From NCBI GenBank assembly GCA_048940375.1, contig JBHLOP010000147.1, positions 1-5,478 of the forward strand: a stretch of DNA of 5,478 nt, given 5' to 3'. This DNA comes from Promethearchaeota archaeon. Its GTDB lineage: Archaea > Asgardarchaeota > Sifarchaeia > Borrarchaeales > Borrarchaeaceae. Each line of letters opens with the position of its first letter. Position 1 is the first letter of the stretch. This document shows, in pieces, positions 586 to 5,478 of this stretch. The notes under the pieces were generated by a model. That model was given only the letters and a program-made list of their open reading frames with translations. It was not told where the DNA came from and ran no database searches. A program made the translations under genes and the position numbers.

Positions 586-1116
586 TTATTTTCTTTTGCG
601 CTTTTTCTTCTTCCTTGTGCCAAATAATTCTATTGCAGATACATATGCAAGTGCTACTGCTCCAATACATATTCCTGCAGCCGCAATAATCAGAAATACG
701 GGGTTTTCAGATGTTTCTCTTTCTGGAGGATTAATAATGGTAACACTAGATTGTCCGTAATAGGTATCTCCTCCAGCTTGGACTTCTGCTGTCAAATTCC
801 ACGTTCCAATTGTTAAGGACGAAGTGTTAAAAGTCGTTTTGTAAACACCAGGTTGGAGTTTTGCAAACATTGAAGATTTTACTTCAAACTCTTTTGATAG
901 TTGACTAAAAGTGAGTTTAATTCTAGCGTTTCCGACTGGGTTTCCATTATCAAAAACGGTTACATTGATATCAAGCATAGTACCTTTGACAACTTGATTT
1001 TCAAAGGGGATGATATTGACTGCAACGTCTGCGTGAGTTTCTTTAGGATATATACTTAATGAGATCGTAAGAACAAACAAGATTGAAATTAAAATCCATT
1101 TCCTGTTTCGGTACAC
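586..1116 (-). CDS. Secreted, membrane-anchored protein with one Ig-like/beta-sandwich extracellular domain, C-terminal TM helix and polybasic cytosolic tail
   Basis: 176 aa ORF with GTG start at 1116-1114. N-terminal signal-like helix (WILISILFVLTISLSIYP), beta-rich middle (NITVFDNG-type repeats of hydrophobic strands, 'LQPGVYKTTFNTSSLTIGTWNLTAEVQAGG'), C-terminal hydrophobic segment VFLIIAAAGICIGAVALAYVSAI and tail GTRKKKKRKRK. G-rich SD-like acgggggct upstream. Confidence 0.75.
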   Translation of the reverse strand: MYRNRKWILISILFVLTISLSIYPKETHADVAVNIIPFENQVVKGTMLDINVTVFDNGNPVGNARIKLTFSQLSKEFEVKSSMFAKLQPGVYKTTFNTSSLTIGTWNLTAEVQAGGDTYYGQSSVTIINPPERETSENPVFLIIAAAGICIGAVALAYVSAIELFGTRKKKKRKRK

Positions 1117-1225: not shown

Positions 1226-1266
1226 AAATAATATATAGTTGAGTTTTGAGGGAGGCGCTAAATCAA

Positions 1267-1815
1267 TTGCAAACGATGAAACGTGTGAAAGAAGGAGTTT
1301 TACAACTGCTTGAAAACAGAAGATATGAAGTCGAATCGATCGAGGAGACCGAGTCAGAAATTGATATCCTCGCAAAAAAGAAAGAGGATAAAAAAGAACT
1401 AAAGTTTTTAGTACGCATTCCTAGTAAAAATGTTGTCGGCGTTGCATTAGTACGAGCATTAGATAAAGCAATGAAAAAACATAGTGTAGATCAGGCGCTA
1501 CTTGCAACTTTAGAAAGATATACGCCTGCCGCAAAAGCTGAATCAAAAAAGAAGAATATTGAATTACTTCCAACAAAGTATCCCATTTTTAATATTTTTG
1601 AGCATGTTCTTGTTCCAAAACATGAATTATTGTCTGAAAAGGAAGCGAAAGAAGTTTTAAAACACTATAACATTAGCAAATTTCAACTTCCTGCGATTAA
1701 AGCAGCGGATCCCGCAGCAAAAGCTATAGGTGCAAAACCTGGACGAATAGTAAAAATATATCGAGAAAGCCCAACTGCTGGTTTACACATCGTCTATCGA
1801 GTCGTTGTAGAATAG
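1267..1815 (+). CDS. rpoH: DNA-directed RNA polymerase subunit H (RpoH/Rpb5) with an added N-terminal nuclease-fold-like domain, giving full-length Rpb5-like architecture
   Basis: C-terminal ~75 aa ([75 protein letters not shown]) matches the RpoH/Rpb5 assembly domain. N-terminal ~100 aa precede it in one uninterrupted frame. The track start at 1246 (TTG) lies upstream of the ggagg SD at 1251-1255, so TTG at 1267 or ATG at 1276 is more likely. Confidence 0.92.
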
Positions 1816-1882: not shown

Positions 1883-2809
1883 TTGTTAAGTGGAGGGACT
1901 GGTACTCCAAAATTACTACAAGGTCTTATAAGGCTTGTTTCTGAGGAAAATTTAACAATAATTTGCAATACTGCAGATGATTACTATTTTTATGGTCTTT
2001 ATGTCTGTCCAGACATTGATTCTGTACTCTACTGCCTAAAAAGTTTTTTAGATGAAGAAAAATGGTGGGGGATAAAAGGCGACACTTTTAACTGTCTTGA
2101 AATGTTAAAACTATATGGTTATGATCCATGGTTTCAATTAGGGGATCGCGATCTTGCGCTTCATATCCATAGAACGCGTTTATTAAATGAAGGTCTTTCT
2201 TTATCTGAGATTATCAATGATGTCTGCATGCGCTTGAATATAGCGCCTCATGTAATTCCCATGACTGATCAGAAAGTCACCACAATGGTCTTCACTGACA
2301 AGGGTAAATTGAATTTTCAAGAGTTTTGGGTACGGGAACATGCAAATGTAAAGGTATTCTCAGTCGAATTTGAAGGAATTAGTAGAGCAGAGCCAACCCA
2401 AGATGTAATTGACTCAATTATAGAAAGTGATGCCATAATTATCGGACCAAGTAATCCTGTTACCTCAATAGGGCCTATTCTGGAAGTACAAGGTGTCAAA
2501 ACAGCCTTAGAAAGGACGCAAGGCATGAAAATCGCGATTTCTCCTATAATCGGAGAACAACCATTGAGCGGTCCTGCAGGTCAACTTATGGAGACTCAAA
2601 ATCTTAGTGTTTCTCCGTATGCTATTGCAAAGATCTATTCGAACTTCTTAGACGTTCTAATTATACATAGTACTGATAAAGGATTGGTTCCTCAAATTGA
2701 AGAACTTGGAATTTCTGTGGTTTTAACTAACATCATAATGAAGAGCCTTGATGATAAAATCAATCTAGCCCAAGAAATCCTTCGTTTAATTGAGGAAAAA
2801 ACATGTTAA
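1883..2809 (+). CDS. cofD: 2-phospho-L-lactate transferase (coenzyme F420 biosynthesis, CofD). The true start is probably upstream, at ATT 1871
   Basis: LSGGTGTPKLLQGL, NTADDYYFYGLYVCPDIDSVLY, WWGIKGDTFNCLEMLKLYG, LGDRDLALHIHRTRLL, IIGPSNPVTSIGPIL and SPIIGEQPLSGPAGQLM are characteristic CofD motifs. Track start is TTG 1883. Confidence 0.95.
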   Translation: MLSGGTGTPKLLQGLIRLVSEENLTIICNTADDYYFYGLYVCPDIDSVLYCLKSFLDEEKWWGIKGDTFNCLEMLKLYGYDPWFQLGDRDLALHIHRTRLLNEGLSLSEIINDVCMRLNIAPHVIPMTDQKVTTMVFTDKGKLNFQEFWVREHANVKVFSVEFEGISRAEPTQDVIDSIIESDAIIIGPSNPVTSIGPILEVQGVKTALERTQGMKIAISPIIGEQPLSGPAGQLMETQNLSVSPYAIAKIYSNFLDVLIIHSTDKGLVPQIEELGISVVLTNIIMKSLDDKINLAQEILRLIEEKTC

Positions 2810-3603
2810 AGTTGCAAAATCCTGCAATACTATCCGCAATAGCAGGAGTTACTAATGGCGATTTTTGTGCACGAGTTGCGAAAGCTGGGGCTGGTATGAT
2901 CACTCTTGGCGGATTTAATTTTGATAAAGCAACGCTTAGCGCAGCAAGACTGATCACAACTAGAGAAAGGCCAGAATTTATTATAGCTCTCGAGGAACTG
3001 CCAGAATATACTGAACGTCAAGTTTCAGTTGCCCGTGAAGGAAAAACTCTCGTAAATATAAATATACGTGTTTCCTCAAGAAATGGATTACTTCTGGCAG
3101 CAAAAATATCACAGGATTCAGGTGCGGATGCTCTTGAACTAAATGCACATTGTAGGCAACCGGAAATTATTGATCTAGGAACTGGACAAGCACTCCTAAA
3201 AAACTCCAAAAAATTGTGTCAGTGGATTAAAATCCTCAAAAATAATGTGAATATCCCTCTAATTGTTAAAATTCGGGCAAACATTGTTGATGAAGTGACT
3301 TTAGTGAAAAAGATAGTTATAGCAGGTGCAGATGCTATTCATGTCGATGCAATGAAACCTGGATATCCTTACGCTGACTTAGACATTATAAAAAGGATAT
3401 CCTACAATGTCGATACATTTTTGATAGGTAATAATTCTGTAAAAGACATTAATTCAGCAATACAAATGCTGAACGCCGGTGCCGATGCATTTTCTATTGC
3501 TAGGGCTGCTATTAATAATCCTGAAATAGTTGGGCAAATTGGGAACGCTATAATGAAAGAATTCAAAGAAAGATTAAAAAAACGTTACATTCTCTTTAAG
3601 TAA
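2803..3603 (+). CDS. Archaeal TIM-barrel protein related to dihydrouridine synthase (NifR3/MJ0144-like family), function uncertain
   Basis: 266 aa from ATG 2803. Contains AILSAIAGVTNGDF.., DALELNAHCRQPEI..GTGQALLKN, PLIVKIRAN, DAIHVDAMKPGYPYADLDII, FLIGNNSVKD and GADAFSIARAAINNPEIVGQI, which follow the DUS/TIM-barrel phosphate-binding pattern. SD tgagg upstream. Start overlaps the cofD stop. Confidence 0.85.
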   Translation: MLKLQNPAILSAIAGVTNGDFCARVAKAGAGMITLGGFNFDKATLSAARLITTRERPEFIIALEELPEYTERQVSVAREGKTLVNINIRVSSRNGLLLAAKISQDSGADALELNAHCRQPEIIDLGTGQALLKNSKKLCQWIKILKNNVNIPLIVKIRANIVDEVTLVKKIVIAGADAIHVDAMKPGYPYADLDIIKRISYNVDTFLIGNNSVKDINSAIQMLNAGADAFSIARAAINNPEIVGQIGNAIMKEFKERLKKRYILFK

Positions 3604-4085
3604 GCTGGGACTTCAAGTACTTCAATGTAAAATTCACATTCAGGGTCTCCTTTTCCATAGCACCTGATCTCGCGCACAAGACATCGTCTGTCTTTTAATC
3701 GTTCAATGACACCTGAAATGAGTCCTGTTTCAAAGCTACATGCAGGCTTTCCTAGATTTGGCAGACCTGCAGATGATAGGGTCTCCAATAATATCAGATT
3801 TCCATTTCCTTTATCTGAATCAAATGAAAATGTTTTTGTTCTTGCAATACCTTTCTTTTCCATCCACTGCAAAAATTCTTCGAATTCCTTAAATTTTGTT
3901 CTCCTACCCAATGCTTTACCACCCGCATAAGCTAGTGTTTTTGACGCATCCTCTCCAACGACATCACGTAGGCTGAATAAACTTAATGCTCTGAATAGTC
4001 GAATGTCGATAGTTGCGCCTAAATTAGGCCGGTCAACAATATCAAGTTCTGGCATTCTAACCTTTTCCAATATTCCCAACTCCAA
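3585..4085 (-). CDS. V4R (4-vinyl reductase) domain-containing protein
   Basis: C-terminus 'CSFETGLISGVIERLKDRRCLVREIRCYGKGDPECEFYIEV' has the typical V4R G.GD..C.F ending. Track start is TTG 4085; an internal ATG at 4055-4053 (MPELDIVDRPNLG...) is a plausible alternative. Confidence 0.8.
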   Translation of the reverse strand: MELGILEKVRMPELDIVDRPNLGATIDIRLFRALSLFSLRDVVGEDASKTLAYAGGKALGRRTKFKEFEEFLQWMEKKGIARTKTFSFDSDKGNGNLILLETLSSAGLPNLGKPACSFETGLISGVIERLKDRRCLVREIRCYGKGDPECEFYIEVLEVPAYLKRM

Positions 4086-4152: not shown

Positions 4153-5169
4153 TTAAAATCTGGAAAGTAACTCTCTTATGAAGTCGTTCGTAGTATTTTT
4201 ACCGCCAAGATCTGGAGTTCTAATGTTGGTTTCTTCATATATTTGTAAAATAGAGTTTTCAAGATCTTTTGCTGCCTGTTTTGCATCATTTATCGAATAT
4301 TTTTCACTTAGCCAATCTAGCATCATCGAGCAACTTAACAATATTGCAGTAGGATTCGCTATACCCTTTCCTTCAATATCAAAAGCCGCACCATGGACTG
4401 GTTCAAACATAGCAATATCCTGTCCGAGGTTTGCAGAAGGAAGAATGCCCAAACTTCCAGTCACCCCTGCAGCTTCATCGCTTAGAATATCTCCAAACAT
4501 GTTAGTAGTAACTAGGGTATCAAATTGTTGAGGATTAATCACCAGTTGGTATGCTGCGTTATCTACATACATTTCGTTTATATCGATCTCACTAAAATTC
4601 TTTGCAATTTCTATGCAGACATTTCGAAAGAATATGCAACTTATCATCACATTAGCCTTATGAACAATAGTTAGTTTTTTGCGCCTTTCCTTTGCTATTT
4701 TACAAGCAACAGTCATGATACGTTCAGTTGCTTCCTTTGTGATCATTCGAACATTAATCGCACATTCTTTTGTTATATCTTCTATTTTCTTATAGAGCCC
4801 CTCAGTATTTTCTCTAACAATTACCAAGTCAACTCCTGAATGAATACTCGGAATGACAGGAATAGTTTTTGCGGGCCTGATGTTTGCGAAGAGGTTGAGT
4901 TCTTGTCTAAGGGGCAAAACTACGTATCTTGCTGTTTCACCAATCGGTGCTTTCAGGCAACATGAACACTTTTTAATTTCGTCTATGGCATTACTGGGCA
5001 ATGCATGACCAGTTTCCTTTAGAGCCTTGTCACCTGCAAATATCTCCTTAAACCGAAAGGAAAAATTATATTTATCTGATAACATCTCAAGCACTTTGCT
5101 TGTAGCAGTAGTTATCTCAGGTCCAATTCCATCCCCTGAAATAACGGCGATTTCAAATGTCTTTGTCAT
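4153..5169 (-). CDS. Isopropylmalate / homoisocitrate / isocitrate dehydrogenase family protein (decarboxylating, NAD(P)-dependent); substrate not resolvable from sequence alone
   Basis: SGDGIGPEIT, LPLRQELNLFANIRPAK, VDLVIVRENTEGLY, IVHKANVM, YVDNAAYQLV, TTNMFGDILSDEAAGVTGSLGILPSANLG, FEPVHGAAFDIEGKGIANPTA and RTPDLGGKNTT. ATG at 5169-5167 has a GTGAT SD 4 nt upstream. The track GTG start at 5178 overlaps that SD. Confidence 0.93.
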   Translation of the reverse strand: MTKTFEIAVISGDGIGPEITTATSKVLEMLSDKYNFSFRFKEIFAGDKALKETGHALPSNAIDEIKKCSCCLKAPIGETARYVVLPLRQELNLFANIRPAKTIPVIPSIHSGVDLVIVRENTEGLYKKIEDITKECAINVRMITKEATERIMTVACKIAKERRKKLTIVHKANVMISCIFFRNVCIEIAKNFSEIDINEMYVDNAAYQLVINPQQFDTLVTTNMFGDILSDEAAGVTGSLGILPSANLGQDIAMFEPVHGAAFDIEGKGIANPTAILLSCSMMLDWLSEKYSINDAKQAAKDLENSILQIYEETNIRTPDLGGKNTTNDFIRELLSRF

Positions 5170-5214
5170 ACTTATCACATTGAACGATGATAGCTAAAAA
5201 GTGTTAGTGTAATC

Positions 5215-5295: not shown

Positions 5296-5478
5296 TTGAA
5301 CATATATGCGCTTATTCCATTGAAAAAATTGGAGAATTCAAAAACACGCATAAGCAATTTATCTCTTGAATCTCGAAAAATGCTTACCAAAGCTATGCTT
5401 TGTGATGTAGTTCAATCAACTTTAGAAGCAAAAAATATCAGCGAAACTTTTGTGATGTCACCAGATCAGGAGATAGTT
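5296..5478 (+). CDS. cofC: 2-phospho-L-lactate guanylyltransferase (coenzyme F420 biosynthesis, CofC), N-terminal part; continues past the right edge
   Basis: Manual translation from TTG 5296: (M)NIYALIPLKKLENSKTRISNLSLESRKMLTKAMLCDVVQSTLEAKNISETFVMSPDQEIV. Matches the CofC N-terminus (IYALIPVKxLxxSKxRLs...L....R..L..AML.DV). SD ggtgat at 5287-5292. Not in the ORF track because it has no stop in the window. Confidence 0.88.
   Translation, partial: MNIYALIPLKKLENSKTRISNLSLESRKMLTKAMLCDVVQSTLEAKNISETFVMSPDQEIV

Follow-up and report, generated by a model that had tools for sequence, protein, structure and literature searches.

A long-form RpoH of an Asgard archaeon with a predicted, catalytically disabled homologue of the eukaryotic Rpb5 jaw

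Is the N-terminal jaw domain of the eukaryotic RNA polymerase subunit Rpb5 confined to eukaryotes, or does it have a counterpart in archaea? Downstream DNA is contacted by the TPSA motif of the eukaryotic jaw, which has been described as a guard rail for the DNA as it enters, and Sulfolobus has Rpo13 in the position of the jaw (PMC6690254, PMC2675907, PMC3479171). Published statements hold that no archaeon has the Rpb5 N-terminal domain (PMC3479171, PMC6690254, PMC3906176), and both a 2014 paper and a 2018 review describe archaeal RpoH (Rpo5) without any N-terminal extension (PMC3906176, PMC6690254). The question is raised by an rpoH gene on contig JBHLOP010000147.1 of a Promethearchaeota archaeon (assembly GCA_048940375.1), of which we analyzed a stretch of 5,478 nucleotides (36% G+C), hereafter the window. 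An initial annotation, made by eye, had proposed that this gene encodes a full-length, two-domain protein resembling Rpb5. The gene and its parts, with residues numbered from the ATG at 1276, are as follows.

1267..1815, + strand: long-form rpoH (rpo5), starting at TTG 1267 or ATG 1276 and stopping at TAG 1813–1815, from the list of open reading frames (ORFs); 179–182 amino acids
1276..1566, + strand: N-terminal jaw-like domain, residues 1–97, delimited by Pfam, AlphaFold, Foldseek and profile matches to the Rpb5 jaw
1567..1587, + strand: inter-domain linker, residues 98–104 (LPTKYPI), with low model confidence until about residue 112
1588..1812, + strand: C-terminal RpoH/Rpb5 assembly domain, residues 105–179, identified with PF01191 and NF007129

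We examined the domain content of the protein using Pfam and NCBIfam models. The C-terminal domain was recognized by RNA_pol_Rpb5_C (PF01191) at residues 105–177 (E = 1.8e-30, 105 bits against a cut-off of 23.5) and by the RpoH equivalog NF007129 (107.8 bits against a cut-off of 83), and 104 residues remained upstream of the Pfam domain. The single uninterrupted reading frame with approximately 100 residues before the RpoH core, as claimed in the initial annotation, was thus found, and the upstream residues form a folded domain in the predicted structure described below. In the C-terminal domain, the identity was 61% to Rpo5 of Pyrococcus/Thermococcus versus 47–49% to eukaryotic Rpb5. Compared with canonical archaeal RpoH/Rpo5 (NF007129; 8cro_H, 4qiw_H and 7ok0_H; about 80 amino acids), the C-terminal domain is alike, whereas the window protein of 179–182 amino acids carries in addition a folded N-terminal domain of 100 residues that the canonical form lacks.

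The N-terminal domain exceeded the Pfam cut-offs of two nuclease-like families, Mrr_cat (PF04471; E = 1e-11, 45.4 bits against a cut-off of 21) and NA-iREase1 (PF22722; E = 3.9e-9, 36.9 bits against a cut-off of 27). The latter match was obtained in a protein with no NACHT context and probably reflects a common Mrr-like inactivated fold. Of the two Pfam comparisons proposed for the N-terminus, that with Mrr_cat was accordingly positive, whereas RNA_pol_Rpb5_N (PF03871) gave no match to the window protein at E ≤ 1; PF03871 is also carried by none of the archaeal homologues listed in the homology searches, according to precomputed Pfam annotation. Since Rpb5_N misses the archaeal domain and Mrr_cat detects it, the domain would be a less derived, restriction-endonuclease-like version of the jaw. 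The linker that follows it contains two prolines (P99 and P103) that are nearly invariant among the long forms.

We searched the PDB sequences with the whole protein using phmmer. Residues 29–178 aligned with positions 54–205 of Arabidopsis NRPB5A (E = 5.8e-24) and residues 27–177 with positions 56–209 of human RPABC1 (E = 1.4e-21); archaeal Rpo5 chains aligned to residues 105–179 only. Because the C-terminal domain could carry such whole-protein matches, the N-terminal domain was also tested alone. With the single window sequence, phmmer returned Rpb5 chains at E = 0.12–0.5 only, and the weakest match (E = 0.52), a signal peptide-binding domain protein, was the sole one outside Rpb5. This search is suggestive, pointing to Rpb5 without reaching significance.

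Given that neither the Pfam Rpb5_N model nor the single-sequence search was sufficient, we used profiles based on alignments. A profile of 21 archaeal N-terminal domains (alignment A2) was compared with 177,635 PDB sequences, and every match at E < 1 was an Rpb5; the best seven had E-values from 7.7e-6 to 3e-4, with 7.7e-6 for Drosophila, 1.3e-4 for Arabidopsis and 2.2e-4 for human. A profile of the window clade (the window group together with P0106, P0112, P0130 and P0175) scored 39–45 bits on metazoan jaws, 32 bits on that of Arabidopsis and 20 bits on that of yeast, for which an approximate sequence was used both here and in the tree described below. A Bathyarchaeia profile scored 24–28 bits on eukaryotic jaws. 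Reciprocally, a profile of eukaryotic jaws ranked the N-terminal domains of archaeal RpoH first (40 bits for P0130 and 28–29 bits for Heimdallarchaeota), and genuine Mrr-like proteins scored below 16 bits with it. When the window clade was aligned with eukaryotic jaws using hhalign, the probability was 97.2% (E = 3.1e-11, 97 columns), and the alignment covered window residues 1–88 and human residues 1–116, including the first helix; the sequence used for the human N-terminal domain was validated by 99%-identical database matches.

A joint alignment of archaeal N-terminal domains and eukaryotic jaws (A3) was colinear from end to end, with R15 (in the RGY motif), G55 and T83 invariant. The eukaryotic jaws contain 17–20 additional residues between the first helix/strand and β2, and four more after TPSAK; the 17–20-residue insertion is missing from all archaeal long forms in both A3 and the hhalign comparison. 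T83-P84-A85-A86 of the window protein matches the DNA-proximal TPSA of eukaryotes, and P84 varies among the archaeal long forms (THYA, TQAA). The three correspondences that had been drawn by eye were recovered by these tools: that of the first helix and RGY by phmmer and hhalign, that of VGV...TPAAK with VG(V/I)K...TP(S/F)A(K/R) by phmmer and the N-only profile, and that of the third segment with NI(T/K)EHxLVPEH by phmmer. As judged from profiles made without the C-terminal domain, the archaeal N-terminal domain is evidently homologous to the eukaryotic Rpb5 jaw.

We then compared predicted structures. The AlphaFold2 model of the whole protein, built from an alignment of 37 sequences, had a predicted local distance difference test score (pLDDT) of 85.7 and a predicted template modelling score (pTM) of 0.56, and the model of residues 1–104 alone had values of 91.2 and 0.82, respectively; in the block of residues 101–110 the pLDDT was 53. 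The modelled N-terminal domain consists of a helix (residues 2–14), three strands (18–24, 28–37 and 40–49), a helix (56–69), a strand (73–76), a helix (84–92) and a strand (95–97), in the order α1-β1-β2-β3-α2-β4-α3-β5. On this model, the predicted fold is the α-β-β-β-α-β core of PD-(D/E)XK nucleases.

In a Foldseek search of the PDB with the full model, the first 33 matches were all eukaryotic Rpb5, each over approximately 200 columns (E about 4e-15), and in the matches to archaeal Rpo5 chains only the last 75 residues of the model were aligned. The N-only model superposed on Rpb5 with root-mean-square deviations (rmsd) of 1.7–3.1 Å over 59–81 columns (TMq 0.46–0.65), apart from one match with 5.1 Å over 124 columns. 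The superposition on Rpb5 that had been suggested as a check thus gave close agreement in the N-terminal domain for most matches. The same model superposed about equally well on the Mrr-like protein AF1548 (1y88) and on MspJI. The C-terminal domain fitted the archaeal chains 8cro_H, 9bct_H and 7ok0_H (TMt 0.84–0.91, rmsd 1.3–1.9 Å), the best fits being those to 8cro_H and 9bct_H (TM 0.90, rmsd 1.3–1.4 Å). These results, together with the phmmer, N-only profile and hhalign comparisons, support the claim of the initial annotation that the protein is a full-length, Rpb5-like, two-domain RpoH.

For the active site, we compared the N-terminal domain by alignment to 25 Mrr-like proteins; the canonical residues E ... 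D-G-x-D ... Q-C-K are seen in the majority of these. The window domain retains E6 and D30, and has R47-I48-P49 where the Mrr-like proteins have Q-C-K. With R-I-P in place of the catalytic QxK, the domain is not expected to act as a nuclease. The Bathyarchaeia domains have lost the catalytic aspartate as well; in human Rpb5 the aspartate is also lost and a proline occupies the position of the lysine (FFP). From this alignment we conclude that the N-terminal domain is a putatively dead Mrr-type PD-(D/E)XK nuclease, and the substitution of the catalytic lysine by proline is, to judge from the same residues, a derived character common to Asgard and eukaryotic sequences. The window domain differs from Mrr_cat (PF04471; AF1548, 1y88) and NA-iREase1 (PF22722), with which it shares the core fold, in this replacement of QxK and in its fusion partner, which is a polymerase subunit and not a DNA-recognition or NACHT module.

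We consider it very probable that the window gene is an Asgard Rpo5 in a long form orthologous to full-length Rpb5, with a disabled Mrr-type homologue of the jaw. Such a protein is best viewed as a minimal archaeal version of full-length Rpb5. Several observations weigh against this interpretation. The failure of PF03871 was described above. With the eukaryotic jaw profile, the window's own N-terminal domain scored just 17.9 bits, and the raw score of the archaeal N profile was higher for Mrr-like enzymes (40–50 bits) than for eukaryotic jaws (24–29 bits). The orientation of the two domains is unconstrained in the model, as reflected in the pTM of 0.56 and in a full-length rmsd of about 9 Å to Rpb5. 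In a neighbour-joining tree of 108 trimmed columns, the eukaryotes had no well-supported place among the archaeal N-terminal domains. Moreover, rpoB is not adjacent to the long rpoH in the window, nor in 42 of 43 related loci.

The first of these observations could indicate a convergent fusion, in which archaea and eukaryotes independently joined a restriction-endonuclease-like domain to RpoH, so that the archaeal domain would be a parallel of the jaw and not its ancestor. Such a scenario would explain why the archaeal domain matches Mrr_cat (E = 1e-11) and not Rpb5_N and why it is structurally as near to AF1548 and MspJI as to Rpb5, and the tandem and stand-alone copies reported below show that the domain is mobile. 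However, the profile similarity between the archaeal domains and eukaryotic jaws is reciprocal and specific, the domain order and the position of the linker are the same, and both groups have the change from lysine to proline and the invariant R15, G55 and T83. In addition, the neighbour-joining tree separated the nearest Mrr-like enzymes from a group of RpoH N-terminal domains and eukaryotic jaws in 100 of 100 bootstraps, which points to a single fusion before eukaryotes. Convergence is accordingly unlikely in our view. The phylogeny that had been proposed for the N-terminal domain bears out the grouping with eukaryotic jaws. The eukaryotic jaw is likely to descend from the disabled Mrr-type domain of archaeal RpoH.

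To learn how widely the long form occurs, as the initial annotation had suggested, we surveyed it among relatives. In a first homology search, all 65 close homologues were long forms or fragments of long forms, nearly all of 160–205 amino acids with the same pair of domains; one, with 85% identity, was named Promethearchaeota archaeon, and others were named Bathyarchaeota. A scan of 185,579 species genomes with an N-domain pattern returned 42 loci, 39 of which were labelled Bathyarchaeota or Bathyarchaeia, two of them on complete Bathyarchaeota chromosomes; the exceptions were two bacterial labels and one 'uncultured archaeon'. The pattern used, A[KRE]K[KRS][GNH]IEL[LI]P, is not matched by the sequence of the window itself, and no Asgard genome was returned. 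Because the scan yielded almost only Bathyarchaeia, the membership of Asgard archaea among the long forms rests on source names. The two bacterial labels belong to contigs of metagenome-assembled genomes (MAGs) with a Bathyarchaeia-type long rpoH (L007, Candidatus Sulfotelmatobacter; L019, Krumholzibacteriaceae) and are probably binning errors.

When 1.84 billion representatives were searched exhaustively with HMMER, 355 matches at E ≤ 0.001 were obtained; among the best 149 of them, 34 clusters at 50% identity contained the RpoH C-terminal domain as well. One long-form clade is named Candidatus Heimdallarchaeota (P0355), and the window N-terminal domain clusters with it; a further divergent clade with a length of 184 amino acids is named Promethearchaeota (P0398), a taxon that NCBI taxonomy places within the kingdom Promethearchaeati, the former Asgard group. 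The long form is thus widespread in Bathyarchaeia and several Asgard clades; in all, it was found in more than 100 clusters of sequences, from Promethearchaeota, Heimdallarchaeota and Bathyarchaeia.

We also compared the window with the closest relative for which DNA sequence was available, a locus of a Promethearchaeota MAG (L043; 85% protein identity). The ratio of nonsynonymous to synonymous substitution rates (dN/dS) was 0.10 for the N-terminal domain and 0.055 for the C-terminal domain, with dS of approximately 0.9–1.0, and the N-terminal domain is under purifying selection. A misassembly or frameshift that joined an upstream nuclease gene to rpoH, which would limit the long form to this contig, is effectively refuted: the same fusion is present in independent NCBI, JGI, ENA and Logan assemblies, in the syntenic MAG contig and on the two complete Bathyarchaeota chromosomes, and the frame is uninterrupted and constrained. 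Nothing was found that favours such an artefact, which was considered solely in view of the 80-amino-acid length of textbook RpoH.

The breadth of this distribution also bears on the possibility that a full-length Rpb5 gene was imported from eukaryotes or giant viruses by horizontal transfer. Two-domain Rpb5 homologues do occur in giant viruses and in African swine fever virus (8q3b_E), and three archaeal copies are named RPABC1 in the JGI annotation. Yet the long form occurs in two phylum-level groups of archaea and is deeply divergent there (about 30 clusters at 50% identity), its C-terminal domain is more archaeal (61% to Thermococcales Rpo5) than eukaryotic (47–49%), and its N-terminal domain is without the eukaryotic insertion and has kept a more Mrr-like sequence. 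We regard such an import as highly improbable.

In some database records the long form is shortened. Bathyarchaeota RpoH sequences in GenBank are cut to 81 or 116 amino acids, as seen for P0371 (OGD57471.1) and P0372 compared with P0362, and for P0064 compared with P0076; the short records begin MPPTLPTFDIFEH, where the 182-amino-acid versions read IPPTLPTFDIFEH. The N-terminal domain is hidden in these records because the start site was chosen to fit the 80-amino-acid model. In the literature, the polymerase subunits of all archaeal phyla were surveyed in 2026; long forms of Rpo6 as well as Rpo8 are treated in that survey, which contains nothing on a long Rpo5. No description of a long archaeal RpoH was found in the full-text literature searched, the coverage of which is incomplete, so that an earlier mention is possible.

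Other arrangements of the domain were observed among the homologues. In four RpoH homologues, two or three tandem dead-nuclease N-terminal domains precede the C-terminal domain (P0109, MHA2170936.1, 481 amino acids; P0135, 436; P0143, 293; P0164, 378), and one internal tandem copy reads FTPSAKKEA, similar to the eukaryotic TPSAK. Three long RpoH proteins related to the clade of the window have additional C-terminal tails that are acidic or of low complexity, such as EEEDEEDEDIDEID or a repeated QHQVRQPQNQK (P0130, 239 amino acids; P0159, 248; P0175, 295). Five proteins of 235–283 amino acids (P0148, P0149, P0150, P0185 and P0128) have an RpoH-type N-terminal domain with neither the C-terminal domain nor the QxK motif and match the N profile at E = 1e-17 to 1e-26; these may be free-standing or differently fused jaw-like copies.

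Does the long protein serve as the polymerase subunit? The genes surrounding rpoH in the window are listed below.

586..1116, − strand: 176-amino-acid protein with an N-terminal signal/transmembrane segment; weak FixH/YtkA/Ig-like matches (E = 2e-4 to 0.05)
1883..2809, + strand: cofD (2-phospho-L-lactate transferase); TIGR01819, E = 7e-102
2803..3603, + strand: MJ0144-type dihydrouridine-synthase-like gene, the ATG of which overlaps the cofD stop
3585..4085, − strand: V4R-domain protein; PF02830, E = 4.5e-14, with a weak match to the MsvR C-terminus
4153..5178, − strand: isopropylmalate/homoisocitrate-type dehydrogenase; PF00180, E = 3.4e-99
about 5300..5478, + strand: partial cofC, from synteny with L043

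The gene order in L043 is the same as in the window: deacetylase, small secreted protein, long rpoH, cofD, dihydrouridine-synthase-like gene, V4R-domain gene, isopropylmalate-type dehydrogenase and cofC. The surroundings of rpoH are thus an F420-biosynthesis neighbourhood in an Asgard genome. The 176-amino-acid protein further contains a transmembrane helix in its C-terminal part and the tail KKKKRKRK, with a 204-amino-acid counterpart at the same position in L043, and the dehydrogenase remained under the equivalog cut-offs of all NCBIfam models tried.

This neighbourhood could suggest a paralogue with an RpoH-like domain and an accessory or regulatory role, the polymerase itself containing an ordinary short RpoH from another locus, since the gene lies among F420-biosynthesis and metabolic genes and not beside rpoB, and an Rpb2 gene is nearby in only one of the 43 related loci. 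However, Asgard genomes reportedly keep only rpoA1-rpoA2-L30e-nusA-S12 together (PMC10833476), so that a dispersed position of rpoH, apart from the rpoA cluster, is not unusual. The C-terminal domain exceeds the NF007129 cut-off (107.8 versus 83), is 61% identical to Thermococcales Rpo5 and has a dN/dS of 0.055. Furthermore, the Bathyarchaeota 'RpoH' entries of 81 amino acids do not represent a second gene but the long gene itself, annotated with a truncated start, and on one Bathyarchaeota chromosome (L006, CP070791.1) an Rpb2-domain gene comes directly after the long gene, the sole such locus among the 43. We consider a paralogue quite improbable; instead, the long RpoH, as the Asgard Rpo5, would be incorporated into the polymerase. 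At the L006 locus (3869–6271), the long rpoH is followed by a 562-amino-acid gene with only Rpb2 domains 6 and 7, that is, the C-terminal half of subunit B; this order is unusual, as the N-terminal half of subunit B usually comes first. The use of rpoB adjacency as proof of subunit identity was dropped, as it was found at 1 of 43 loci only.

We also examined where the protein begins. The ORF listing gives an uninterrupted + strand frame at 1246..1815 with three in-frame start candidates, namely TTG 1246, TTG 1267 and ATG 1276, the second of which is the start given in the initial annotation. A 4-nucleotide indel between L043 and the window places the stretch 5' of the TTG/ATG pair in another frame in L043, so the extension from TTG 1246 would not be coding, and this start (189 amino acids) was ruled out. 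The motif TTGCAAAC(G/A)ATG is kept between the two loci, as is an upstream GGAGG, and homologues of 179–182 amino acids begin at the same point as the window protein. The long RpoH would thus begin at TTG 1267 (182 amino acids) or ATG 1276 (179 amino acids). The GGAGG is the following feature.

1251..1255, + strand: GGAGG, Shine-Dalgarno-like, read from the sequence; 11 nucleotides before TTG 1267 and 20 nucleotides before ATG 1276

In L043 the GGAGG lies 7 nucleotides before the equivalent TTG, and we regard the element at 1251–1255 as a putative Shine-Dalgarno element. The intergenic region between the divergent genes (1117–1275) is well conserved with positions 9850–10000 of L043, and two candidate archaeal TATA boxes were found in it by eye, CTTATAAAA (1163–1171) and TTTATATG (1218–1225). 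A promoter scan of the window with a sigma-70 model, which is irrelevant for archaea, gave nothing useful, and tRNA and Rfam scans of the window found none.

How might the archaeal N-terminal domain function? The nearest known system is eukaryotic Rpb5 (RPABC1/ABC27; PF03871 and PF01191; 1dzf, 5flm_E and 7eu0_E), in which the same PD-(D/E)XK jaw is followed by the assembly domain. The window N-terminal domain resembles it in superposing at about 2 Å, in having proline in place of the catalytic lysine and in its TP(S/A)A motif. Unlike Rpb5, the window protein is about 30 amino acids shorter, is without the 17–20-residue and the 4-residue post-TPSAK insertions, keeps D30 of the old active site, is PF03871-negative, has a C-terminal domain nearer to archaeal Rpo5 and is encoded by an archaeon with a single polymerase. 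By analogy, the C-terminal 75 residues would form a canonical assembly domain docking on the largest subunit and, given the homology and colinearity, would tether the N-terminal domain at the same site as the eukaryotic jaw. There the N-terminal domain might serve, without catalysis, as a guard rail for the downstream duplex and might offer a surface in contact with this DNA, possibly through the loop T83-P84-A85-A86, the counterpart of the eukaryotic TPSA. It might also contact initiation factors and give TFB or TFE a surface on which to dock, in the way that TFIIB docks on Rpb5. The domain would fill the void that is occupied in Sulfolobales by Rpo13 (2waq, 4ayb). Rpo13 has been proposed to lie in this space, next to Rpo5 and the clamp head of Rpo1, where it would touch the duplex DNA downstream (PMC2675907, PMC3479171). 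The analogy is purely functional, as Rpo13, a helix-turn-helix protein, is unrelated and has a gene of its own.

With respect to evolution, an Mrr-like domain would have been fused to rpoH and inactivated in archaea before eukaryotes arose, and eukaryotes would have inherited the long RpoH and gained the insertion of approximately 17–20 residues. We thus think it probable that the Rpb5 jaw is an archaeal invention, in which an Mrr-type domain joined rpoH, was disabled before eukaryotes, was kept as a minimal jaw in Asgard archaea and Bathyarchaeia, where it would guide downstream DNA, and was passed on to all nuclear polymerases of eukaryotes. The jaw is the largest difference among the polymerase subunits common to archaea and eukaryotes. 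Its presence in Asgard archaea and Bathyarchaeia would move its origin before eukaryogenesis, would identify its source as a disabled Mrr-type nuclease domain and would add a feature of transcription to the eukaryote-like traits of Asgard archaea. The finding also exposes an annotation problem, as some GenBank records trim the long rpoH to 81 amino acids. Finally, the archaeal domain may offer a small and simple jaw with which roles in the handling of downstream DNA and in factor contact could be tested.

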